A DNA stretch of 64,000 nt from assembly GCF_029227855.1 (NCBI RefSeq), contig NZ_CP074356.1, one strand, 5' to 3'. The notes below the pieces were generated by a model, which had not been told where the DNA came from, searched no databases, and was given only the letters and a program-made list of their open reading frames with translations. The position numbers were made by a program, and so were the translations under genes. The stretch comes from Escherichia coli (GTDB lineage Bacteria; Pseudomonadota; Gammaproteobacteria; Enterobacterales; Enterobacteriaceae). The first letter of the stretch is position 1, and every line of letters begins with the position of its first letter. This document shows, in pieces, positions 9,786-52,281 of this stretch.

Positions 9786-10670
9786 ATGGCGAAAAGGGAG
9801 AACTACAACGAGCTGTACCTGTTTATGCAGGTGGTGCGGGAAGGCAGCTTTACCGCAGCGGCTCAGCGGCTGGGTCTTGCTCAGTCAGGAGTCAGCCGTT
9901 CTGTTCGCGAGCTTGAAGAAAGGCTGGGTGTCCAGCTGCTAGTGCGCACCACGCGTAAACTGTCGCTGACACAAGCAGGCGAGCAGCTCTACCAGAAGAC
10001 GGCATCTGGATTTGAAATGTTAGATCTTGGGCTTGCCACGCTGGCGCATTATCGAGAGACGCCCTCCGGCACGGTGCGTATCAATGCCAGCCAGCACGCG
10101 ATTGATAAATGCCTGCTGCCAAAGCTGGCGGTATTTAAACAGAGATATCCTGATATCCGGCTTGAACTGATAAATGAGAGCCGGTTCGTCGATATCATCG
10201 AGGAAAGATTCGATGCAGGTGTCCGCCTGGGGCCTGAAGTCGGCCAGGGTATGGTCGCGGTACGCATCACGCCCGATATGGAGATGGCAATTGTGGGGAC
10301 TCCGGAACATTTTCGTCGCTATGGTTTTCCGCAAACCCCGGCGGATTTAAAGGCGCATCCCTGTATCGCCTATCAGTTTGCCGACGGCAGCGTATACCAG
10401 TGGGAACTCAATCAGGATGATAAAAAAATCACTCATCGCCCTGAAGGGCAATGGGCCCTATCCGACAGCTATATGGAAGCAGAAGCCGCCCGGCTGGGCC
10501 TCGGATTGGCCTATGTTCCTGTTGAACTGGTCGCGGATGATTTAGAACACGGTAAGCTTATCAGGGTGTTGCAGCGTTACAGCCTGCGAATGGAGGGATT
10601 GTTTCTCTATTACCCTCATCGCAACGTCTCCCCCGCCCTGCGGATGGTCATTGATACATTGAAAATCTGA
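9786..10670 (+). CDS. LysR-family transcriptional regulator
   Basis: 294 aa; N-terminal HTH (FTAAAQRLGLAQSGVSRSVRELEERLGVQLL); divergent from the hydrolase-MFS pair. Confidence 0.85.
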   Translation: MAKRENYNELYLFMQVVREGSFTAAAQRLGLAQSGVSRSVRELEERLGVQLLVRTTRKLSLTQAGEQLYQKTASGFEMLDLGLATLAHYRETPSGTVRINASQHAIDKCLLPKLAVFKQRYPDIRLELINESRFVDIIEERFDAGVRLGPEVGQGMVAVRITPDMEMAIVGTPEHFRRYGFPQTPADLKAHPCIAYQFADGSVYQWELNQDDKKITHRPEGQWALSDSYMEAEAARLGLGLAYVPVELVADDLEHGKLIRVLQRYSLRMEGLFLYYPHRNVSPALRMVIDTLKI

Positions 10671-11103
10671 ACGTTAACAACGACCGACTCTTCACTGTGC
10701 AAAATTGTGTCAGGTAGTCCCTCTGCGTTCAATTCCAGGGTCTGCTTTGAGCGAGAAAGAGGGGACTATCCAGCAATGGAGATCACCCAAAAGAAAAAAC
10801 CACCTGGCTCCCTCGACAACCTTCATCCGGGCATTTAGCCTCAATCAACATTTTTATATCTGTCAGGTTACTTCATTATGAAAACTGATCATCATCGTTG
10901 TTTTTGTTGCAATAGTAGAATACGCGTATTTATTCCTCCATCTCTATTAATAACGGCAATAAACTGTTCACTTCACTGATATTTAAAATATGTATCCTTT
11001 TCAAGCTGTTCAGCGGCGTAAGAAAAAGTATTAATTATGAATTCGATGATTTAACCATATCTGTCTGATTGGTAATCATCCGTGATTAATGCTGGTCTAT
11101 TGA

Positions 11104-12024
11104 TTACGCCAGAACCCTCTCTAGCTTATTCACCGCCGCCACATACTTCGCCGGATTTTTATCTTTAAGCACCGCCAGATTGCGTTGCTTCCAGCGAATA
11201 GCCGGAAGATGCTGAATTTCAGGATAGCGATACCGCGACCAGTCAGGGCTGTTTTGCTTAAAACTGAGCAAGAACTCGCGATCCAGATCCGTAAGATGTG
11301 ACTTCAACGCCTGCGGCAGCAAAGTCGTTACTGACAGAAGCGATTCCAGCGACGTTTCCTGTTGCGTCATCCCTGAAAATTCCTGCGCGTACAACGTGGC
11401 GATCCGCTCTGTATCCCAGTTTGGAGCCAGCAACTCGGCGATGGGGCGGGGATGGCCTGCCAGATAACAAAGAAAACCGTCAAAGATCTCCCGCATCAGT
11501 CCCGGTTTCTCCAGCATATTCAGCACATCAAACAGATCGCGCGGGTGCTGACGATCAAGCGCAGCGCAGATTTTACCGCCATAAAGATCCGCCAGCGAGA
11601 CGACACTCATGGTGGTGAAGCCATACTCCATTTCCACACGTTCGCACACAGGCATTTCTGCCGGAGGCAACAACAGCCCGCGCCAGACCGGGCTAACCTC
11701 GATCTTAATCTTTGCATCAGCGGTATTCACAATGATGCGCTTTTCATCCGCTTTATTTTCCTGCCGAATCGCGGTGATCCCCGGTCTGCCGTTCAGCGAT
11801 GCAGTAATCCTCTTCAAAGCGTCGTTGATAGCCGCCAAATCAGTATCGCGATCCGCAAAGCTCTTGTACGCCAGATCAATATCCACCGACAGACGGGGAA
11901 AATCCTGCACAAACAAATTGATTGCGGTGCCGCCTTTCAACGCGAAACAGGACTCCTTCGCCACATACGGCAGAGCGGCCATCAACAGTTTGACCTGCCG
12001 GGCATAGCTATCACGCAGATCCAT
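11104..12024 (-). CDS. abiEii: AbiEii-type nucleotidyltransferase toxin (DUF1814 family)
   Basis: 306 aa; NTase motif GGTAINLF...RLSVDIDL; 14-nt overlap with upstream partner. Confidence 0.7.
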   Translation of the reverse strand: MDLRDSYARQVKLLMAALPYVAKESCFALKGGTAINLFVQDFPRLSVDIDLAYKSFADRDTDLAAINDALKRITASLNGRPGITAIRQENKADEKRIIVNTADAKIKIEVSPVWRGLLLPPAEMPVCERVEMEYGFTTMSVVSLADLYGGKICAALDRQHPRDLFDVLNMLEKPGLMREIFDGFLCYLAGHPRPIAELLAPNWDTERIATLYAQEFSGMTQQETSLESLLSVTTLLPQALKSHLTDLDREFLLSFKQNSPDWSRYRYPEIQHLPAIRWKQRNLAVLKDKNPAKYVAAVNKLERVLA

Positions 12025-12814
12025 CTTCGACTCCTTCCGGTTTAAATGCGCGTGGAACAGTAATTTGATAATCCGGCTCCAGCCAGCCGCCGGGTATGAT
12101 TTGCCGCTTTCCCGTACCTGTTTCTATACCGCTTTGATCAATATACTGAAAATAAGGGTGTCCATTACGCCGGGCAAGGTAAAGCATCACCCGGTTGGTT
12201 TTAACCGAATGGCTGGCGCGAAGCAGTGCCTGCAATTTGCGTGGGCTGAGAAGATTCAACCCCTGAAACAGAGCATCGGCATGTTCGAACGAGATTAACG
12301 AAGGAACGCCGCAGGCGATCTCATACGCGGCCAGTTCCGGAACACTGCCTGCTAACTGGCGGTCGCCAATTTTCAGTTCCGTAGTAAATGGCGTTACATC
12401 AGCGGTAAGGCCTGACGTATACAGCGTGACAAACGTTGCGGATTGTTCAAAGGCAGAAAACCATCCCGGCAGTTTGACGTAAGCCGGAAGCGCGAGCCAG
12501 ACCTGCGGCTTACCCTGTTCGGTATAGTGCGCATGACCCTGAAGCGCAAGGCTGGTTAGCCCCGCCACCCGAACAGGCTTTTCCCACTGCGATTGCAGGC
12601 AGTAAACCGCATCCACCCAATCCGGTTCACGACCCGTCCGGCAGTATACGCCGTGAGCGATCCGCCTGAGCCAGCCATTCTTCACATAGAGATAAGAGAG
12701 CTTACGATCTATGCCGTTGCGGGTAAGCCATGACTGGAGCAGCACCTGGCCGGGTAGCGTGTGCTGCATCAGCCAGTTTAGATAGTTTGGCAACTGTCGC
12801 CTCTGAATAGACAT
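12011..12814 (-). CDS. abiEi: AbiEi-type antitoxin / transcriptional regulator
   Basis: 267 aa; sits immediately upstream of and overlapping the NTase gene, the usual AbiE arrangement. Confidence 0.6.
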   Translation of the reverse strand: MSIQRRQLPNYLNWLMQHTLPGQVLLQSWLTRNGIDRKLSYLYVKNGWLRRIAHGVYCRTGREPDWVDAVYCLQSQWEKPVRVAGLTSLALQGHAHYTEQGKPQVWLALPAYVKLPGWFSAFEQSATFVTLYTSGLTADVTPFTTELKIGDRQLAGSVPELAAYEIACGVPSLISFEHADALFQGLNLLSPRKLQALLRASHSVKTNRVMLYLARRNGHPYFQYIDQSGIETGTGKRQIIPGGWLEPDYQITVPRAFKPEGVEDGSA

Positions 12815-13108
12815 TAGTACAAATATTTAAACCAGTGTAGATTCAGGGATACGCCACAGCAAGAAATAGTTTACTTATTCCTCATTTTGTCGACTAAAAA
12901 TCGACATTAAACAAAAAATTCAAACTTAATCACTTTCGGGAAAAATGTGACAAATATATGCTCGGACTGGTTGCGGGGAGCGTGTAACATGGATACAAAT
13001 CAAAATTATTGCCAGCCTCACTGATGGATTACTGGTGTCAAGAGCCCCCCTTCGGGCATGAAACGGCTGGCTAATTCTGTACAGACTGTAATCTAAGGAC
13101 GATAACGC

Positions 13109-14884
13109 ATGACATATCAGGCAATTTTCACTGGCTGGGATGATCTGACGATTGAAGACCTTCTGGTCGCTTACCGGAAAGCAAAAGCCGATAGCTTCTT
13201 TGAGAATACATTTCCTGTTGCTATCAAATTTGCCGAGTATGAGCAGGAATTACTTGAAAACCTGCAAAAACTCTTAGATCTTTTGCAGAGCGAAGATGGA
13301 TTCAGTAGCAATAAGAAGTTGATTGGCAAATTTCGTTTGTTACCGAAAAAATTAACCACAAAGAAAAAACATGAATCCCAAAATGGACACGTCCACTTTT
13401 CTAATCCTAAACGAGCAGCCGACCATTTATTTAATAATTTTGATCTGATACCAGAGTTTCGTATTATTGGTGACTTCCCGGTTGATAGTCACATTATCTC
13501 TGCACTATGGATTAACATGGTCGGGCATAAATTTGATGCCAGCTTAGATAACTGTTGCTATGGCGCGCGGCTAAAGCGTATTCGTAATGATGAATTATTT
13601 AGCGATGAGCAGGATAATCCATTCCATATCAGTGCCGTGGGTTCTTTTAGCCCCTACTTCCAGCCCTACCAAAAATGGCGTGGTGATGGCTTAAAAGCTA
13701 TACGTGACGAGTTGGAAAAAGATCGTGACATTATCGCCGCCTCACTGGATTTAAAAAGTTACTATCATTTTATTGATCCACTGGCTATAACCTCTGATGA
13801 TCTCTATAACACACTAAACATAAAACTGACTGAGGATGAAAAAGCGTTTACTGCACAGTTAGCAGTATTCTTAAAGCACTGGTCTGACGGCGCAGCGGCA
13901 TTTGGAAAGAAAATAGCGTACAAAACACCTGTTATTAATGGTGGTCTGGTCATTGGATTAACAGCCAGTCGGATCATTTCAAATATATTGCTACACCATT
14001 GGGATAAATTAGTCATTGAAAAACTATCACCAATTCACTACGGTCGTTATGTCGATGATATGTTCCTTGTAATACGCGATACAGGGACAATTACTAATAA
14101 TCACGAATTTATGTTATTGCTGCAAGATAGGCTTGGCAATGATTGCGTTTATTTGAAAAACGAGCAAAAACAAATATGGCAAATACAGCAGGGCGAGCAT
14201 TTCCAGGGTAAGACCACCATCCAGTTACAATCCGATAAGCAAAAACTTTTCGTGCTTCAAGGGAGGGCTGGAATAGACCTGCTCGACAGTATCGAAAAGG
14301 AGATCTACGAGCTTTCTAGTGAACACCGCTTGATGCCTTCACCGGATCAACTGGAACACTCCACCGCAGCTAAAGTCCTTTCCGCTGCCGGTAGTGTAGG
14401 TGAAAATGCCGATACTCTGCGCCGTGCGGATGGATTAACCATTCGTCGTTTGGGCTGGTCACTGCAATTACGCTACGTTGAAACACTGGCACGAGATCTG
14501 CCTCCAAGTGAATGGAAAGAACAGCGGGAAGAGTTTTATCAGTTTGCCTACAACCATATTCTTAGGGCTGATAATCTATTTGCACATTTTAGTTATCTGC
14601 CAAGGCTGCTTGGCTTTGCTATCAGTATGAATGAATGGCAGCACGCGGAAAAAATTGTACTTAAAGCTTACGAATCCATCAACCTGTTGGCATCGGTGAT
14701 TACTTCAGGTAAGGAAGTGAATATAAATGGTTGCAAAACTCGAGCAGTAAATGATCTTTGGCGCTGTATAAAAGGCACATTAAGCTGGCTATTTGTTGAT
14801 GCAGCGACACGATATTACAGTCCTGACAGATTATTTCTTGATAAACGTTCAAAGAAAGAAGAGTGCCTTGCGGATACATTTTAA
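13109..14884 (+). CDS. Reverse transcriptase (UG/Abi-type defence RT); likely the N-terminal part of an RT-nitrilase fusion interrupted at a T4 tract
   Basis: 591 aa; RT motifs in order: FRLLPKK (motif 1), LDLKSYYHFID (A), GGLVIGLTASRIISNIL (B'), YGRYVDDMFLV (C, YxDD); stop codon TAA begins inside TTTT at 14879-14882. Confidence 0.8.
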   Translation: MTYQAIFTGWDDLTIEDLLVAYRKAKADSFFENTFPVAIKFAEYEQELLENLQKLLDLLQSEDGFSSNKKLIGKFRLLPKKLTTKKKHESQNGHVHFSNPKRAADHLFNNFDLIPEFRIIGDFPVDSHIISALWINMVGHKFDASLDNCCYGARLKRIRNDELFSDEQDNPFHISAVGSFSPYFQPYQKWRGDGLKAIRDELEKDRDIIAASLDLKSYYHFIDPLAITSDDLYNTLNIKLTEDEKAFTAQLAVFLKHWSDGAAAFGKKIAYKTPVINGGLVIGLTASRIISNILLHHWDKLVIEKLSPIHYGRYVDDMFLVIRDTGTITNNHEFMLLLQDRLGNDCVYLKNEQKQIWQIQQGEHFQGKTTIQLQSDKQKLFVLQGRAGIDLLDSIEKEIYELSSEHRLMPSPDQLEHSTAAKVLSAAGSVGENADTLRRADGLTIRRLGWSLQLRYVETLARDLPPSEWKEQREEFYQFAYNHILRADNLFAHFSYLPRLLGFAISMNEWQHAEKIVLKAYESINLLASVITSGKEVNINGCKTRAVNDLWRCIKGTLSWLFVDAATRYYSPDRLFLDKRSKKEECLADTF

Positions 14885-16316
14885 TCATATTTCACAAAGT
14901 CTGACGAATCTAAAGGATTTACTGGATCTTCGCTTTGATTCAGCAGATTTTTATTTAAAAGCGCCATTGGTAGCTCGAGCTGATTTAGCAAAGGAACCTT
15001 ATAAACAGATCGTAAAGAGTCAGTCGGCAGAAAAACTTGTTAATCAGCGTGATAGTAAAAAAGAAGTTAAAATACTGAAATTAATGAGCGACTCATCGCT
15101 TATTGATATTGACGTTATTAAGCTATTTTTGAAATCAACCAAGAATACCCGACTGGAAAAAGTGGCTAAAGGAAATCGTAAGAACGAAAGTTACCTACCT
15201 TACATTTTCCCTACACGTCCTTTAACACCCGCTGAAATATCAGAACTGGCCCCCGAATGTGTTGGATTACCCTCCACATCCGACAAAAAACCAGATGAGA
15301 GACCGTCCACCATTTGGGCAAAATATACTCAAGCATTACGCGGAGTATGGATCAAACCGACGTTGCTAGCATCGGAGCAGGACTCAGATGAAGCGACAAA
15401 AAAAGCTCGGCCTAAGAAATTCATTCATATTGGCACAGACAGGAAACATAAAGTTGTCGTTGCGCTAACCAGCATTAAAACAGAGGAGGACGACTGGGCT
15501 AAAATGGCCTGCAATAAATCTAACTTGTCCCGTTCAAGGTACCAGCGGATTTCTGAACTGGTTAATGCAACATTGAAACTATCTCCTAAACCTGATTATG
15601 TTTTATTCCCTGAGCTTTCAATCCCGTTACGCTGGGTTAACAGTATTGCTGATCGTTTGAGTTCGGCGGGTATCAGTCTAATTGCGGGAACAGAATACCG
15701 CCACTTAGACGATAATCAACTGAAGAGTGAGGCCGTACTTGTCCTTTCAGATAACAGACTCGGCTATCCAGCGAGTGTCAAAATATGGCAACCCAAGCTG
15801 GAACCCGCCGTAGGTGAAGATGAGGCATTATTTTCAACTTATGGTAAGTCTTGGGATTCGACACTTAATGTTAAACAACGTAAGCCGGTATATATTCATC
15901 ACGGCGTCAATTTTGGCGTTATGATTTGCTCTGAACTCCAGAATAGTAAAGCGAGGATCCGTTTTCAGGGCGCACTCGATGCATTAATGGTATTGAGCTG
16001 GAATAAAGATCTAGATACGTTTGCATCGTTGATTGAATCAGCAGCGCTGGATATTCATGCCTATACTATTTTAGTGAATAACCGAAAATACGGCGATAGT
16101 CGCGTACGTTCCCCGGCAAAAGAACCCTTTATGCGTGATATTGCTCGTGTGAAGGGCGGTGATAATGACTTTGTGGTCGCTGCAACGCTGGATATCGACT
16201 CGTTAAGGGCATTTCAGAGCAGGGCAAAACGCTGGCCTAAAGGCGGCGATAAATTCAAACCGTTACCTGAAGGATTCCAGTTGGCAAAGAACCGCAAAAA
16301 GCTACCGCCAAAATAA
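14793..16316 (+). CDS. Nitrilase / CN-hydrolase domain protein; probable C-terminal part of the RT-nitrilase protein (frame +1 relative to the RT ORF)
   Basis: 507 aa as called (TTG start, no convincing RBS); nitrilase-like triad context YVLFPELSIP (Glu), VKIWQPK (Lys), GVMICSELQN (Cys); overlaps RT ORF by 92 nt. Confidence 0.75.
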   Translation: MLMQRHDITVLTDYFLINVQRKKSALRIHFNHISQSLTNLKDLLDLRFDSADFYLKAPLVARADLAKEPYKQIVKSQSAEKLVNQRDSKKEVKILKLMSDSSLIDIDVIKLFLKSTKNTRLEKVAKGNRKNESYLPYIFPTRPLTPAEISELAPECVGLPSTSDKKPDERPSTIWAKYTQALRGVWIKPTLLASEQDSDEATKKARPKKFIHIGTDRKHKVVVALTSIKTEEDDWAKMACNKSNLSRSRYQRISELVNATLKLSPKPDYVLFPELSIPLRWVNSIADRLSSAGISLIAGTEYRHLDDNQLKSEAVLVLSDNRLGYPASVKIWQPKLEPAVGEDEALFSTYGKSWDSTLNVKQRKPVYIHHGVNFGVMICSELQNSKARIRFQGALDALMVLSWNKDLDTFASLIESAALDIHAYTILVNNRKYGDSRVRSPAKEPFMRDIARVKGGDNDFVVAATLDIDSLRAFQSRAKRWPKGGDKFKPLPEGFQLAKNRKKLPPK

Positions 16317-16478
16317 GAAACTGATTTTCGCTATTAATAATCAGGGTATTTTTGCGTGAGATGTCGGTAAACATGATGTAGCCCTTGCCACTCATGACCA
16401 ATCGCAGTATCTTTCTCCCGCGCCTGCAAAATCAGGCGTCGGGATTAGCCTCCTGAAGAAATCTTATCGGCGACACAT

Positions 16479-16500
16479 GACGCGCCAGCGTCTTTTTTTG
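16479..16500 (+). terminator. Possible intrinsic terminator downstream of the nitrilase ORF
   Basis: Short GC hairpin GACGC-GCCA-GCGTC followed by T7. Confidence 0.3.
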
Positions 16501-16662
16501 TGTTGTTCGCACGGTTACATCTCAATGGTGGGCCGGGCGGGGGCGTCGCAAGACGCGCCAGTGTCCGATAAGGCTGGTAAGGCTAACCCTGCCCGGTTCC
16601 ACCACCCGCGAGATTAGCCTCTCCGGTGGTGGCTTGAACACCCACTTATCGGAGGTTGCCCT

Positions 16663-17133
16663 ATGGCTACAATCCTCACCACTGACAGCGATTTACTCGA
16701 TCTATTGACCGTCCCCTTCAATGCCACCACGGATTTCACTGTCCTTGCTGACTACTGCGCCCGCTTTGCCGAAACCCTGATTGAAACCGACGATCCAGCG
16801 CTACGACTGGCGCTCTGCGGGCGGCTTCACGCGGCTCTTGCGCTACTGCAACCCACACTACACGACCCCATCCCACCGCATCTTACCGAAAGCCTGACCG
16901 TGGATACCCTTCCCGCCACACCAGAGCACTTTATTTCCGAACCTGATTCCTTGTGCGAATACTGCCTCGCACTACTCCAGCTTCTGCTGGAACGTCCGGC
17001 GGAACCAAAAATGGAGCAAACCCTGACCGGGCTGCTGTGTGAGCTGGTCTGGTATTTCACGGAAGGACTCAAAGCCCCACGCTGGCTGCGTACCGCCGAC
17101 GGCGTAAAATTTATCAGCGAGGTGGCCGCATGA
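16663..17133 (+). CDS. Hypothetical protein, no recognisable domain
   Basis: 156 aa ORF with a good RBS (GGAGG); stop overlaps the start of the Ner-like fragment. Confidence 0.5.
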
Positions 17134-17270
17134 TGCAACAGGACTGGCATTCCGCCGACATTATTGCGGTGCTGAAAAAGCGGGGAACGCCTCTGGCGGC
17201 ACAGAGAAAAACTCATTGCGGAAGCGCTGTAAATATCGCCAGAAATCATCTGGCCTTCAAGGTACTTTGA
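17130..17270 (+). pseudogene. Ner/Nlp-like DNA-binding protein gene, internally deleted and frameshifted
   Basis: N-terminus [24 protein letters not shown] is Ner/Nlp-like; similarity then breaks, and a second Ner-like stretch (REKLIAEAL) appears in another frame. Confidence 0.5.
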
Positions 17271-17311
17271 TAGCAAAGGCAAGCAGGCTGGTTCAGTCCA
17301 GTGTTTCTCTT

Positions 17312-17410
17312 CTTGCATTTTCAGAAATGGGAGGCTGGGAGTCTATCGAAATGGTTCGTCGATATGCTCACCTCGCGCCTAATCACCTTACCGAACACGC
17401 ACGGCAAATA
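17312..17410 (+). pseudogene. C-terminal remnant of a tyrosine integrase gene
   Basis: Peptide [30 protein letters not shown] matches the conserved C-terminal region around the catalytic Tyr (RYAHL) of phage integrases; no upstream integrase sequence present. Confidence 0.55.
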
Positions 17411-17496
17411 GACTCAGTCCTGAACCCATCGGTCCCAAATTTGTCCCAGTCAAAAAATAAGGAAGGTACTAATGATGTGTAACTTATTGATTTTAA

Positions 17497-17572
17497 TGGT
17501 GCCGATAAGAGGAGTCGAACCTCCGACCTTCGCATTACGAATGCGCTGCTCTACCAACTGAGCTATATCGGC
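17497..17572 (-). tRNA. thrW: tRNA-Thr, anticodon CGU
   Basis: 76-nt cloverleaf GCCGATATAGCTCAGTTGGTAGAGCAGCGCATTCGTAATGCGAAGGTCGGAGGTTCGACTCCTCTTATCGGCACCA with encoded CCA; anticodon loop CATTCGTAATG. Confidence 0.9.
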
Positions 17573-17686
17573 CCTGAAAGGACATGTTCACGAACGTGAA
17601 TCACGGTGGACAAGGTTAAAACTAACCGGGCGATGCGTCAATGGCCTTGTGAATCAAATGGCTACTTTTGCATCACCCGGTTTTAT

Positions 17687-18940
17687 TTACGCACGAATGG
17701 TGTAATCACCAATGCCGATCCACTTGTAAGTGGTCAGTGCTTCCAGCCCCATTGGGCCACGCGCGTGGAGTTTTTGTGTGCTTACCGCCACTTCCGCACC
17801 CAGTCCAAACTGGCCGCCGTCGGTAAAACGCGTAGAGGCGTTAACGTAAACAGCGGACGAATCCACTTCGTTAACAAAACGCTGGGCGTTGCGCATATCG
17901 CGGGTCAGGATCGCATCGGAGTGTTGTGTGCCGTGTTCACGAATATGGGCGATGGCATCGTCAAGATCGCTGACGATTTTGACGTTCAAATCTAATGACA
18001 GAAACTCATCGTCATACTCTTCGGCTTTAACAGCCACCACCTTCGCGGGGCCTGCCTGCAACTGCGCCAGCGCAGCTACATCTGCGTGTAATGTCACGCC
18101 GCTTTCCGCCATTTGCTTGCTTAATGCGGGCAGGAAGCTATCGGCGATGTTTTTATTTACCAGCAACGTTTCTACCGTATTACATGTGCTCGGACGCTGA
18201 GTTTTCGCGTTGACAATTACTTTCAGGGCTTCAGCGATCTCTGCACTTTCATCAACGTAAATATGGCATACGCCTATACCGCCTGTGATCACCGGGATTG
18301 TCGACTGTTCGCGGCACAGCTTATGCAGGCCAGCGCCACCACGCGGGATCAGCATGTCGATGTATTTATCCATACGCAGCATTTCACTGACCAGCGCGCG
18401 GTCAGGATTATCAATCGCCTGTACTGCGCCTGCCGGTAAATCGCAGGATTTCAGGGCGTCCTGAATCACCGCCACCGTTGCAGCGTTAGTGCGACAGGTT
18501 TCTTTGCCACCACGCAGGATCACTGCGTTACCGGTTTTCAGGCACAGCGAAGCGACATCAACCGTCACGTTCGGGCGAGCTTCATAAATCACGCCAATCA
18601 CCCCCAGCGGTACGCGACGACGCTCCAGACGCAGACCGCTGTCCAGCACACCACCATCAATCACCTGCCCCACCGGATCGGCGAGGTTGCACACCTGGCG
18701 CACATCATCGGCAATGCCTTTCAGCCGTGCGGGCGTCAGTGCCAGACGGTCAAGCATCGCTTCGCTAAGGCCATTGGCACGCGCGTCAGCAACATCCTGG
18801 GCGTTAGCGTTGAGGATGATTTCGCTTTGTGCTTCCAGTTCATCGGCGATTTTTTCCAGCACGCGATTTTTTTCGCGACTGGAGAGTTGCGCTAATTTAT
18901 ACGAGGCTTGCTTCGCGGCAATGCCCATTTGTTCCAGCAT
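17687..18940 (-). CDS. proA: Gamma-glutamyl phosphate reductase
   Basis: 417 aa; aldehyde dehydrogenase-family catalytic Cys region; conserved proBA operon. Confidence 0.9.
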
Positions 18941-35835: not shown

Positions 35836-36271
35836 GATACTGCTCCTTGGGATTAATCGTTTTCGTTTCGATACCCTGTAAAAACGACACCTCGGGAGCA
35901 AACTTAAAACCGCCGTTAAAATTTTTTCGCCACGTATTATCCGATGCCACTTTTAGCTAAAAAAAAACAGAGTTTAAATTCAGATAAAAAGATTATTAGC
36001 AATATCTGCCACATGGCCAGGTATCAAAATATGTCTTTATCAATTGCTTGATATAGTTAAGATTATCATCAATTACCGCGTTTTCTTATCAATGTACTGA
36101 TGCCAAAATTTACATTGCGTTGCAAATAGTACACATTTGGCTATTGTACCTGTCCTGTCATTTCGTTACATTTCCACGCTATATAGTGATTAAGAATAAT
36201 CTTATCACCATAAAATTATTAATTATCACGCAGAAAAATCATCTTCTCAGGGACGTATAAGACTGTGCTTT

Positions 36272-49809: not shown

Positions 49810-52281
49810 ATGCCAACACCAACCCTCATCAAAACACTCGCCACTCACCGCGAAAAACCGTTCGTCAGCGTCGTCACGCCCACATGGAACCGTAGCGCAT
49901 TCCTGCCGTACCTGCTCTATATGTACCGCTATCAGGATTACCCGGCAGACCGCCGCGAACTGGTCATCCTCGACGACTCGCCGCAAAGCCATCAACACAT
50001 CATCGACCGCCTGACCAATGGCACACCGGAAGCCTTTAACATCCGCTATATTCATCACCCGGAAAAACTGCCACTGGGCAAAAAACGCAACATGCTCAAC
50101 GAACTGGCGAGCGGCGAATACATCCTCTGCATGGACGATGACGACTACTACCCGGCAGATAAAATCTCTTACGCCATCGCCATGATGCAAAAACACCGGG
50201 CGCTCATCTCCGGTTCCGACCAGATCCCCATCTGGTACAGCCACATCAATCGCATCTTCCAAAGCCGCAGCTTTGGCTCACATAACATCCTCAACGGCAC
50301 CTTTTGCTATCACCGTAACTACCTGAAAAAGCACCGTTACGACGATGATTGTAATTTAGGCGAAGAGAAAAGTTTCACCAACAATTTCAGCGTTAACCCG
50401 CTACAACTGCCCGGCGAGCGCACGATTCTGTGTATCTCGCACAGTCACAACACCTTTGATAAAGATTTTATTCTCGGGGCTAGCACGCCAGTAAACGCGG
50501 CGCTTACGGATATCGTCCGCGATCCGCTGCTGCGCAATGCTTATCTGAGTCTGCATAACGCCACTCATCACCAGGCGATCGATCAGGTCGTACTGATCAA
50601 TCTGGATAAACGCCCGGATCGCTTACAGCAGATCCGTGAAGAACTCACATTGCTGTATATTCCGCCTGAGAAGATCACCCGCCTTGCCGCCAGTGAAAAT
50701 GAAAACGGTCAACGGGGTCGCCGCCAGTCACACTTGCAGGCGCTGCGCCTGGCGCAACAGCACGGCTGGCAAAACTACCTGCTGCTGGAAGATGACGCAG
50801 TTATTCTCAAGCAGGAGAAACATATTCAGGTACTGAACACGCTGCTCGCGAGCCTGGCGAAAATTCCCTGGCAGGTGATGATCCTTGGCGGCGAAATTTC
50901 GCAGGGAACGATGCTAAAAAGTTTGCCGGGGCTGGTGCACGCGCGGGACTGCCGCAAAGTGTGCGCTTATCTGGTGAACAGTCGCTACTACCCGCAACTG
51001 GCGCAGCAGATGAGCCACAATGAACACTCGCTGGAAGACGGCTGGCAGCCGCTGCTACGCGCCGACAAATGGCTGGCCTGTTACCCGAGCCTTAGTTATC
51101 AGCGACCGGGCTTTAGTGATATCGAGAAAAAAGTGACCGACAACATTGCTCACTATTTCAATAAGTTACCCGTTATCACAAAGCCATCCGCATTACCCAT
51201 CGCCGACACCATCGGCTTTTTTATGGAAACCTCCTTCCACTACGCGCTCTACCGCCCAATCATCACTGCTCTACAGGTGCAGGGGCAGAGCTGCACGCTG
51301 GTGATCAATGACCGCGTGTTTAAACCGTTTCTTGATGAGATGCTGGAAACACTGAAAAACATCGACGATCCGCAGCTTAAAGGAATGCGCTTATCTGAAA
51401 TGCAGGCACACGGTCAGCGGGTGAAATGCCTGGTCAGCCCCTACCACACGCCCGCGCTCAATGGCCTGGCAGCGGTGAACGTTCGCGCCATGTACGGCTT
51501 AGCCAAAGAGACGTGGAACCACGCCGACTGGAACCGTTTTTATCAACGCATTTTGTGTTACAGCCACTACAGCCAGCGGGCGCTGGCGCATTTCGGCAAT
51601 GCAAAAGCAGTCGGCAACCCGCGCTTCGACGCCTGGCATAACGGCACGTTTGCCCGCACTCTGCCGGAAAATATTCAACCCGATTCCCGTAAACCTACGG
51701 TGCTCTATGCCCCCACGTTTGGCGCATTAAGCTCCCTGCCCCACTGGGCAGAAAAATTAGGCCGCTTAAGTGGCAATGTGAATCTGATTTGCAAACTGCA
51801 CCACGGCACCTGCTCGCGCCCGGAAGAAGCGGCATCGCTGGCCCTGGCGCGCAGGCATTTAAAACAGCGCACCGACTCCGCCCGCCACACGCTGGCGCTG
51901 CTGGCAAAGGCCGATTACGTGCTGACCGATAACAGCGGCTTTATTTTCGATGCTATTCACGTTGATAAGCGGGTGATCCTGCTCGACTTTCCGGGCATGG
52001 CAGCGTTGCTCGACGGTGAGAAAAGTTACTCCACGCCGGAGAGCGCCGATCAGCAAATCCGCGAAATATTGCCGGTGGCTCATGATATGGCAGAGTTGCG
52101 TTACTTGTTGTCAGAGGCGTTTGACTGGGGGGCGGTGCAGGCGCGGCTTACGAAGATTCGCCATCACTATTGCGATGCGTTTATGGATGGCAAAGCGGGA
52201 GAACGGGCGGCGATGGTGATTGTGGAGGCGCTGGCGGACAAGGAATCGTCAGGGATATGTCGATATAATTCGATTTTTTAA
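49810..52281 (+). CDS. Multidomain glycosyltransferase: GT2 domain, GT25-like domain, and C-terminal CDP-glycerol glycerophosphotransferase (TagB/TagF-like) domain
   Basis: GT-A signature VSVVTPTWNR...ILDDSP with a DDDDYY acidic motif; middle LINLDKRPDRL; C-terminal VLYAPTFG (TagF-type YAPT motif); track ORF starts at 49744 inside the GC-rich repeat. Confidence 0.65.
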   Translation: MPTPTLIKTLATHREKPFVSVVTPTWNRSAFLPYLLYMYRYQDYPADRRELVILDDSPQSHQHIIDRLTNGTPEAFNIRYIHHPEKLPLGKKRNMLNELASGEYILCMDDDDYYPADKISYAIAMMQKHRALISGSDQIPIWYSHINRIFQSRSFGSHNILNGTFCYHRNYLKKHRYDDDCNLGEEKSFTNNFSVNPLQLPGERTILCISHSHNTFDKDFILGASTPVNAALTDIVRDPLLRNAYLSLHNATHHQAIDQVVLINLDKRPDRLQQIREELTLLYIPPEKITRLAASENENGQRGRRQSHLQALRLAQQHGWQNYLLLEDDAVILKQEKHIQVLNTLLASLAKIPWQVMILGGEISQGTMLKSLPGLVHARDCRKVCAYLVNSRYYPQLAQQMSHNEHSLEDGWQPLLRADKWLACYPSLSYQRPGFSDIEKKVTDNIAHYFNKLPVITKPSALPIADTIGFFMETSFHYALYRPIITALQVQGQSCTLVINDRVFKPFLDEMLETLKNIDDPQLKGMRLSEMQAHGQRVKCLVSPYHTPALNGLAAVNVRAMYGLAKETWNHADWNRFYQRILCYSHYSQRALAHFGNAKAVGNPRFDAWHNGTFARTLPENIQPDSRKPTVLYAPTFGALSSLPHWAEKLGRLSGNVNLICKLHHGTCSRPEEAASLALARRHLKQRTDSARHTLALLAKADYVLTDNSGFIFDAIHVDKRVILLDFPGMAALLDGEKSYSTPESADQQIREILPVAHDMAELRYLLSEAFDWGAVQARLTKIRHHYCDAFMDGKAGERAAMVIVEALADKESSGICRYNSIF

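Follow-up and report, generated by a model that had tools for sequence, protein, structure and literature searches.

A two-nucleotide deletion splits, and most likely inactivates, a UG5-large reverse transcriptase-nitrilase gene in one clone of Escherichia coli

Two neighbouring open reading frames in the analysed window, which comprises the whole stretch of 64,000 nucleotides of E. coli DNA, encode a reverse transcriptase (RT) and a nitrilase-type domain, and meet in a tract of four thymines within which the first frame terminates. This arrangement raises the question of whether the two frames are the remains of one gene or a working pair, and what has become of its defence function. The original prediction had offered four explanations, namely a recently inactivated defence gene, a homopolymer sequencing error, a site of +1 frameshifting and a genuine two-gene variant, the first of which is supported by our analysis whereas the other three are poorly supported. 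In the interpretation we favour, to which we assign a probability of about 0.85, the locus is a UG5-large gene whose T6 tract was shortened by two nucleotides through slippage in a single clone, most likely abolishing defence. The features relevant for this interpretation are listed below, with residues numbered as in the intact protein.

11104..12814, - strand: pair of genes encoding AbiEii (toxin) and AbiEi (antitoxin), divergent from the RT gene and not part of it (ORFs; PGAP annotation of identical loci)
13095..13099, + strand: Shine-Dalgarno-like AAGGA, 9 nucleotides 5' of the RT start codon (anti-Shine-Dalgarno duplex of -5.7 kcal/mol)
13109..14884, + strand: 5' section of the UG5-large gene, cut short to an ORF of 591 codons that ends at a premature TAA and encodes the RT together with the greater part of the alpha-helical middle region
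14048..14059, + strand: RT catalytic motif YVDD, residues 314-317 (aligns with the YVDD of DRT1 chain 9yfd_A)
14879..14882, + strand: T4 tract, site of a 2-nucleotide deletion from an ancestral T6 (TTT TTT, Phe 591-Phe 592; alignment with E. coli 042, strain 7/2 and JNEC-KY178)
14882..14884, + strand: premature TAA stop codon resulting from the frameshift, with T as the next base (UAAU context; sequence)
14883..16316, + strand: remainder of the gene, read in the +1 frame (residues 593-1069 and the stop codon) and encoding the rest of the helical linker and the C-terminal nitrilase
15414..16313, + strand: nitrilase-superfamily (C-N hydrolase) domain, residues ~770-1069 (AF2 model, Foldseek, conserved residues)
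15612, 15795, 15816 and 15927, + strand: nitrilase catalytic residues Glu 836, Lys 897, Glu 904 and Cys 941, respectively
17500..17572, - strand: tRNA-Thr gene (thrW), the integration site bounding the island on the proA side (Rfam tRNA, 71 bits; annotated in syntenic genomes)

The local sequence is as originally described, with an RT frame of 591 residues that contains a YVDD motif and whose stop codon begins inside the T4 tract (GAT ACA TTT TAA TCA), and a nitrilase frame that is open across this site (R I H F N H I S Q). In the ORF listing, the latter is open from 14793 to 16316 and overlaps with the RT frame by 92 nucleotides. The assertion that the downstream ORF has no good ribosome-binding site also holds, since the pairing energy at the RT start falls at the 5th percentile when compared with positions sampled along the gene, whereas candidate starts in the nitrilase frame show weak pairing, with a best value of -4.0 kcal/mol at 14799 and of -0.1 kcal/mol at the ATG at 15084 (residue 660). 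A promoter scan returned 8 sites compared to 8.2 expected in shuffled sequence, and no promoter is claimed. In an Rfam scan of positions 10500-18000, the 294-nucleotide spacer upstream of the gene matched no RNA family; the only matches were the tRNA and downstream C4/isrK RNAs. The exact RT protein of the window is deposited as WP_275877383.1, and the nitrilase stretch of strain JNEC-KY178 is annotated by PGAP as 'carbon-nitrogen hydrolase family protein' (WP_275877384.1). The exact 591- and 505-residue proteins of the window are found in 1 contig and the full-length allele of strain 042 in 560.

The relationship between both frames is illustrated by their match to a single PADLOC profile, RT_UG5-nitrilase (PDLC03780, 907 positions), of which the RT ORF covers positions 9-515 (E = 2e-173) and the nitrilase ORF positions 519-901 (E = 4e-135), thus indicating that their pairing is not a product of chance. 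The profile next in rank for the RT ORF, RT_UG5_small, reaches 1e-39, RTasNitrilase reaches 3e-44 for the nitrilase ORF, and the respective values for Drt1a are 6e-14 and 3e-12. A second UG5-nitrilase profile, PDLC02995, gives only 4e-29, which places the gene in a UG5-large subgroup other than the one modelled by this profile. In a search of the PDB with a profile of 58 homologues, the DRT1 chain 9yfd_A was matched in the RT and nitrilase regions (E = 5e-28), besides Drt3a, Drt2 and retron RTs. The expectation that RT and nitrilase profiles would match was borne out strongly in PADLOC but not in Pfam-A, where an RT or CN_hydrolase domain was detected in neither ORF, as the family is too divergent; the domain calls rest on the PADLOC matches, the profile search of the PDB and the predicted structure. 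In NCBIfam and PHROGs, the RT matches were weak and below threshold.

Judged by these sequence relationships, the locus constitutes a single UG5-large gene and is a distant relative rather than a member of DRT1/UG1. Its description as DRT1-like does not withstand the comparison of profiles, and the same applies to its placement in class 1, since both UG1 and UG5 are class 3 UG/Abi RTs (PMC9226505). The window gene contains a UG5-type RT with a YxDD motif and a C-terminal C-N hydrolase domain with Glu-Lys-Cys residues, whereas the single polypeptide of ~1000 or more residues that characterises UG5-large proteins is split by the 2-nucleotide deletion. It is on these grounds classified as a frameshifted member of this family and not as a separate one. 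Drt1a/UG1 is not its best match and, with 1069 residues, the intact protein is shorter than the 1200-1300 residues of DRT1. Equally, the features of a UG5-small two-gene system, a best match to UG5-small and a separately initiated nitrilase that is kept in relatives, are not found.

The residues expected to confer catalytic activity are preserved in both parts of the gene. Among 58 homologues with 27-82% identity, Tyr 314, Asp 316 and Asp 317 of the RT are invariant, as are Glu 836, Lys 897, Glu 904 and Cys 941 of the nitrilase, which include the proposed Glu-Lys-Cys context and of which Cys 941 aligns with Cys 1116 of DRT1. An AF2 model of the intact protein (mean pLDDT 86.7, pTM 0.91) shows an alpha-beta sandwich starting around residue 772, which Foldseek matches best, among PDB entries, to amidases of the nitrilase superfamily (E = 9e-9, target TM-score 0.65-0.69). 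Since 9YFD was not among the results of this search (library to 8 April 2026), the link to DRT1 rests on sequence and profile matches. In the model, residues 591-592 are located within a predicted helix (582-600), in the least confident helical stretch (571-610, pLDDT ~59-72), and the predicted fold suggests that the position of the break is disruptive.

The protein is found in a fused form throughout its close relatives. The best 120 homologues, which include proteins from Citrobacter, Salmonella, Yersinia, Vibrio and Marinobacter within the Gammaproteobacteria, are all fused, with a length of 1064-1080 residues, 69-100% identity and 100% query cover, and 134 of the top 150 representatives of clusters at 50% identity comprise at least 950 residues. 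With ~70% identity between E. coli and Vibrio or Marinobacter, the subgroup is unusually conserved. The comparison of homologous sequences indicates that the RT-nitrilase fusion is ancestral. The same applies within E. coli, where 258 of the 260 records with the locus contain an exact T6 tract in a single CDS encoding 1069 residues, and it is thus an interrupted fusion rather than a two-gene arrangement with a conserved T4 that is found in relatives. The T4 allele is shared with the window only by JNEC-KY178, the 1 record among the 260 that carries it, and a search for T5 and T7 alleles found none. In the alignment with the window and JNEC-KY178, strains 042 and 7/2 both show T6 and one CDS of 3210 nucleotides, and among 5,426 complete genomes of E. 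coli, 259 carry the intact 042-type allele. The tract is a plain coding run for two phenylalanines, which is TTT TTT in Salmonella, TTC TTC in Yersinia and TTT TTG in Vibrio. Phe 591 is invariant, position 592 holds F, L, I or M, and the flanks of the tract align without a break. Taken from these alignments, the ancestral tract is T6 and the lesion is the loss of two thymines and not the gain of one. The original prediction, in which the ancestral state was to be either T3 or T4, had thus named neither correctly; while deletion of one T would, as proposed, restore the frame of a ~1068-residue fusion, the natural intact allele contains T6 instead of T3 and encodes 1069 residues.

Over 64 kb, 6 SNPs and 3 indels separate the window from JNEC-KY178, and both belong therefore to the same clone; the next-best E. 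coli matches to the window, among those listed, show 99.1% identity. As the two independent assemblies share T4 yet differ at these positions, the mutation is real, inherited and confined to one clone. Since their divergence, the window copy of the gene has acquired the substitution N166D and the JNEC-KY178 copy T544A, both towards residues common in homologues, and neither half has accumulated a disabling mutation or other signs of sequence decay so far. A relaxed constraint, which could be read from the location of 2 of the 6 SNPs in the gene (~0.3 expected), was set aside in light of the nature of both changes.

The genomic setting is that of a defence island or mobile element, with the gene located in a thrW island by proA that also contains the AbiE pair as well as integrase and prophage remnants. 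Besides AbiEi/AbiEii, its neighbours are an ash-family ORF and an ORF of 156 residues that matches no family, and orthologues adjoin type I restriction-modification and Kiwa-like genes. The GC content of the gene is 41.9% compared to 53.3% in the window. The C4 RNA and the ash-family ORF had suggested a P4-like satellite, a reading that was dropped as the flank resembles lambdoid 'antirepressor' regions and the integrase of phage SfIV. When the intact protein was searched with tblastn against 50,697 phage records, no match was returned and thus no evidence of sequenced phages carrying the gene.

We envision that replication slippage would have deleted two thymines from the coding T6, with the consequence that the RT frame now halts after residue 591 and leaves the nitrilase part in the +1 frame without its own ribosome-binding site. 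The resulting loss of function is the most likely outcome as judged from the sequence. A first concern with this reading is that the strain might truly contain T6 and an intact gene, with the lesion introduced during sequencing or assembly, as its location in a homopolymer would allow. The window and JNEC-KY178 also differ by single-base indels at 36216 and 63531, the latter within flhB, a gene that the annotation of JNEC-KY178 marks as frameshifted, and homopolymer errors may thus be present in one assembly or both. Such an error is nevertheless an unlikely cause of the T4 allele, since the same two nucleotides are missing from two independent assemblies, 258 other assemblies show T6 and none T5 or T7, and a miscall of two bases would be unusual in a run of only six. 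It is similarly improbable, if not more so, that the 591-residue RT and an independently translated nitrilase would associate in trans and still defend. This idea draws on UG5-small systems, where the nitrilase is naturally a separate ORF (PMC9226505), which illustrates that a split is not non-functional in principle. It also draws on the location of the break within the least confident helical stretch, on the intactness of both halves, and on the in-frame ATG at residue 660, near the natural UG5-small/nitrilase boundary, which we have extrapolated from PADLOC profile coordinates to residues ~655-658. However, the break resides ~65 residues upstream of this boundary and inside a helix, the candidate starts show weak or no Shine-Dalgarno pairing, for both halves the two-gene profiles score far below that of UG5-large, none of the close homologues is split and the allele is limited to one clone.

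The T4 tract would also permit perfect re-pairing of tRNA-Phe on the overlapping UUU in the +1 frame beside the stop codon (ACA-UUU-UAA), a geometry that permits low-level +1 shifting at prfB and other 'shifty stop' sites, and the 1068-residue product would differ from wild type solely by the missing Phe 592, a variable position. It is, however, very improbable that the locus relies on such an event, as the site is found in one clone whereas 258 of 260 relatives are plainly in frame, and as its stop context UAAU, the most efficient terminator in E. coli, is strong. No Shine-Dalgarno-like stimulator precedes the UUU-UAA site in the local sequence, and the conserved site, weak stop context and stimulator of a programmed prfB-type site are thus all absent. 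Any +1 shifting would be incidental and low rather than programmed. Finally, a homopolymer lesion inside a defence gene that could be costly to express might suggest a contingency locus, in which the T tract toggles the gene. This reading is effectively refuted by the allele counts, with a tract length that is essentially fixed at T6 (258 of 260, without T5 or T7). Moreover, a run of six is short for efficient slippage, the gene contains six other homopolymers of at least 6 nucleotides, and in Yersinia the two phenylalanines are encoded by TTC TTC.

With a frameshifted UG5-large gene as the preferred reading, the function of its intact counterpart can be approached by comparison. The closest known systems are of the UG5-large family, namely DRT11 of Sinorhizobium meliloti RMO17 and the 'RT-nitrilase + 1TM' system of E. 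coli P4-like satellites. The intact allele shares with this family the order of RT, helical and nitrilase regions in one polypeptide of ~1000-1070 residues, the YVDD and E-K-(E)-C residues and the location in a defence island, and with DRT11 the lack of a transmembrane (TM) partner and a detectable ncRNA, whereas the window gene is, unlike this family, split. DRT11 requires the active sites of both RT and nitrilase, it does not need a TM partner and contains no detectable ncRNA (bioRxiv 10.64898/2025.12.16.694600). In an E. coli P4-like satellite, a UG5 RT-nitrilase together with one TM protein protects against phage (PMC9122126); the TM protein is needed there, whereas none of the genes neighbouring the window locus encodes one. 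Such an association is optional, being found in 31 of 299 UG5-large members. UG5-small proteins with a separate nitrilase (cluster 249) appear superficially alike, with an RT ORF of ~600 residues followed by a nitrilase ORF, but the window differs in the 92-nucleotide frame overlap, the second frame without ribosome-binding site and the fused relatives. The published names 'DRT5S' and 'DRT5L' may, in our own reading, denote UG5-small and UG5-large.

DRT1 (UG1, PDB 9YFD), likewise of class 3, shows homology in the RT and nitrilase domains alike and the same overall domain order, and by analogy the window family probably shares its mechanism, in which protein-primed DNA adducts regulate a nitrilase effector. 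In the intact allele, the RT would make template-free, protein-primed single-stranded DNA that would be kept covalently on the protein, the adducts would, as in DRT1, drive the assembly of a dormant oligomer via the nitrilase domains, and a phage cue would free the nitrilase effector and infection would abort. In DRT1, both catalytic centres are needed, and its priming residue Ser 402 resides in a disordered loop that follows the RT; according to the published account, this serine lacks conservation among the other DRTs of class 3. The region around this residue does not align with 9yfd_A in the window family, whose Ser 404 is invariant among the 58 homologues and whose model contains one disordered loop at residues 428-440. 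A literature search did not retrieve an experimental test of the UG5-large subgroup represented by the window gene.

Collectively, the locus contains a kind of gene that is already known and that has undergone an ordinary recent inactivation, with little significance beyond annotation. It is improbable that the T4 allele is alive, either by occasional +1 slippage at UUU-UAA giving some full-length protein or by its halves acting in trans, although in the latter case it would offer a snapshot of the fission of a UG5-large gene into a UG5-small-like two-gene architecture. The proper annotation would be that of a frameshifted UG5-large (DRT11-like) pseudogene and not of two genes, a DRT1 system or a recoding site. 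The intact 042-type allele provides a TM-less E. coli representative of a protein that is ~70% identical across many Gammaproteobacteria, for which the T4 clone would serve as a ready natural loss-of-function control.

The interrupted reverse transcriptase (RT)-nitrilase gene of the window represents a frameshifted allele, specific to one clone, of a known and catalogued defence family, the UG5-large proteins in which both domains are fused, and it arose by deletion of 2 bp from a coding T6 tract. An ORF scan of the window defines its two parts:

13109..14884, plus strand, RT ORF of 591 aa
14793 to 16316, plus strand, open stretch of the second ORF in the +1 frame

In the window sequence the junction reads GAT ACA TTT TAA TCA, with TTTT at 14879-14882 and the stop codon at 14882-14884, whereas the second frame continues as R-I-H-F-N-H-I-S-Q. 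The original prediction of an RT and a nitrilase-frame ORF split at TTTT was therefore accurate, with both ORFs, tract, stop and peptide re-read from the sequence. The ancestral state is reflected in the E. coli records that hold the locus at a minimum of 99% identity, 260 in total and spread over 259 of the 5,426 complete genomes. E. coli 042 and strain 7/2 carry it as a single CDS of 3210 nt encoding 1069 aa, which in the alignment departs in length from the window solely by two additional T's in the tract (ACATTTTTTAAT in the intact strains vs ACATTTTAAT in the window). An 82-nt T6 probe matches 258 of the 260 records exactly and the T4 probe a single one, strain JNEC-KY178. Exact matches to T5 or T7 probes are absent, which implies that the one record left over departs from T6 by some other change within the 82 nt. 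Alignment and probe counts thus point to the deletion of two nucleotides from TTT TTT (Phe591-Phe592) and not to a one-base insertion into T3. The prediction of a single original gene broken at the T tract has consequently stood, but not its assumption of an intact T3, since the proposed comparison of orthologues identified T6, and neither T3 nor T4, as ancestral length.

The fusion of both domains is conserved. Each of the 120 best homologues, whose hosts include Citrobacter, Salmonella, Yersinia, Kluyvera, Vibrio, Marinobacter and Alteromonas, is one polypeptide of 1064-1080 aa aligned over the full query length at 69-100% identity, and close homologues composed of two genes with a conserved T4 were not observed among them. 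At least 950 aa are found in 134 of the 150 top representatives clustered at 50% identity, with shorter ones looking like fragments from contig ends. Phe591 is invariant in 22 of 22 aligned sequences and both flanks of the break align without interruption. Phase variation at the tract, an ordinary coding homopolymer that is one of seven runs of at least 6 nt in the gene and whose codons are TTT TTT in Salmonella, TTC TTC in Yersinia and TTT TTG in Vibrio, is next to inconceivable.

In PADLOC, the RT_UG5-nitrilase profile (PDLC03780, 907 positions) matches the RT ORF at positions 9-515 (E 2e-173) and the downstream ORF at 519-901 (E 4e-135), which makes them adjoining pieces of one gene, whereas the DRT1 profile Drt1a scores just 6e-14 and 3e-12. 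The profile search thus recovered RT and nitrilase through PADLOC but not through Pfam-A, which has no match in either ORF; NCBIfam and PHROGs provide weak RT matches at most. The interpretation as interrupted RT-nitrilase defence gene has thereby held, but not its placement as DRT1-like or in class 1, as UG1 (DRT1), UG5 and UG29 form class 3 of UG/Abi RTs (Mestre et al., PMC9226505), and the gene is a UG5-large relative but not a member of DRT1. This kinship is illustrated by a profile of 58 homologues (27-82% identity to the query), which matches the DRT1 structure 9yfd_A in two stretches, RT and nitrilase (E 5e-28), and also Drt3a, Drt2, retron and UG15 RTs. The YVDD motif (residues 314-317) and the nitrilase residues E836, K897, E904 and C941 (numbering of the intact 042-type protein) are invariant in all 58, with C941 aligning to DRT1 C1116, the residue mutated in a published nitrilase knock-out (PMC13275509). 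The proposed modelling of the fusion yielded a confident AlphaFold2 structure (mean pLDDT 86.7, pTM 0.91), whose C-terminal domain resembles nitrilase-superfamily amidases (Foldseek E 9e-9, target TM-score 0.65-0.69). Conservation within this UG5-large subgroup (homologues P0013-P0120) is unusually high: E. coli and marine Gammaproteobacteria (Vibrio, Marinobacter, Alteromonas, Microbulbifer) are ~70% identical and the columns of a 22-sequence alignment average 84% identity, which suggests either a recent and wide horizontal spread or a strong constraint.

A sequencing error at the tract would leave the gene intact. However, the nearest relative JNEC-KY178 (99.9% over 25 kb, compared to 99.1% for the next-best among the records listed), which differs by six SNPs and three indels over the full 64 kb and constitutes a separate assembly of the same clone, shares T4, and in a collection of ~15 billion proteins the exact 591-aa (WP_275877383.1) and 505-aa (WP_275877384.1) products are found on one contig compared to 560 for the full-length 042 allele. 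Both observations support a real, inherited mutation confined to one clone and an error appears unlikely. The indels comprise a 15-nt deletion in the window at 50571 and single-base changes at 36216 and 63531, the latter in the Flag-2 lateral flagellar gene flhB, whose JNEC-KY178 copy carries a frameshift according to its annotation and whose copy in the window is of intact length. Since the separation of both strains, the substitutions N166D (window) and T544A (JNEC-KY178) have both led to residues common in homologues, and the deletion therefore is recent, the sequence showing no decay so far.

A functional fission into two working genes is very unlikely. In the model, residues 591-592 are located inside a predicted helix (582-600) of the helical region that connects the nitrilase to the helical domain next to the RT, and the natural boundary of UG5-small two-gene systems, extrapolated from PADLOC coordinates, would reside around residues 655-658, some 65 residues past the break. 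As predicted, the downstream ORF has no good ribosome binding site: anti-SD pairing is weak at its in-frame start codons (-4.0 kcal/mol in a bulged duplex at ATG 14799, -0.1 kcal/mol at ATG 15084) compared to -5.7 kcal/mol at the RT start, where an AAGGA Shine-Dalgarno element is found 9 nt 5' of the start codon. Production of the fusion by +1 recoding at T4/TAA is highly improbable, as the stop context is UAAU and no SD-like element precedes the tract in the window sequence, which in light of prfB-type sites both argue against efficient recoding.

The probably inactivated UG5-large gene resides in a small GC-poor island (GC content 41.9% for the gene, 53.3% for the window), bounded by a partial ykgR copy and by thrW adjoining proA:

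10882-10998, partial ykgR-region copy, ~90% identity (incomplete ykgR in the JNEC-KY178 annotation), at the left edge just before AbiEii
11104-12814, minus strand, AbiEii/AbiEi type IV toxin-antitoxin pair (PGAP names), apparently intact
16407-16609, plus strand, c4-a1b1, isrK and C4 antisense RNA in tandem (Rfam)
16663-17133, 156-aa ORF 3' of the RNAs, no family match
~17279-17572, 3' integrase remnant, 90.6% identical to the Shigella phage SfIV integrase, abutting thrW and proA
17500-17572, minus strand, tRNA-Thr (thrW)

The AbiE pair, whose proteins match no NCBIfam model, and the RT gene diverge across a 294-nt spacer. The RNAs score 43.8 (c4-a1b1, slightly below gathering score), 68.8 (isrK) and 71.1 bits (C4), and 16430-16676 is ~74% identical to 'antirepressor'-annotated regions of Salmonella and Stx phages; the module thus looks like an immI-type antirepressor control, a relic of a lambdoid prophage. 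The island is the degraded terminus of a prophage that had inserted at thrW. No homologue of the intact gene was found in 50,697 phage records. In E. coli MS 69-1, the chromosomal locus is seen a second time (NZ_CP146678.1 22478-26380, a 64,057-bp record classed as plasmid), an observation that could stem from an artefact of assembly or from duplication of the segment. Salmonella and Yersinia orthologues adjoin type I R-M and Kiwa-like genes, with the RT-nitrilase starting 13 nt past a KwaA-like pair (184 and 277 aa; L006/L007 3598-4988 in Salmonella, L008 3598-4988 in Yersinia) that itself follows the R-M genes, and in Vibrio (L009 3238-5004) it has a 4-nt overlap with a 588-aa gene that matches SMC_N weakly. 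Both may be operon partners in some lineages; E. coli lacks them.

UG5-large fusions at times occur with a transmembrane (TM) protein, whereas in UG5-small the nitrilase forms a separate ORF (Mestre et al., PMC9226505), and an E. coli P4-like satellite encodes a UG5 RT-nitrilase that together with one TM protein forms a validated anti-phage system (Rousset et al., PMC9122126). No TM gene neighbours the RT-nitrilase gene of the window, which in this respect equals DRT11, a TM-less UG5-large gene that protects S. meliloti in an abortive-infection-like manner, depends on the RT as well as the nitrilase catalytic centre and lacks a detectable ncRNA (Sanchez-Nieto et al., bioRxiv 10.64898/2025.12.16.694600). 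In DRT1, protein-primed DNA adducts control the nitrilase effector and the priming residue S402 sits in an unresolved loop; protein-linked DNA is also made by 'DRT5S' and 'DRT5L', names that we read as UG5-small and UG5-large (PMC13275509). By analogy, residues 403-440 (window ~14315-14428) are a candidate priming region, for which no alignment to DRT1 was obtained; all 58 diverse homologues retain S404, and 428-440 is the sole disordered loop of the model. By homology, the intact 042-type protein should act like DRT11, DRT5S/DRT5L and DRT1, whereas the window allele, which would provide an RT without nitrilase or leave the nitrilase untranslated, would not be expected to confer defence.
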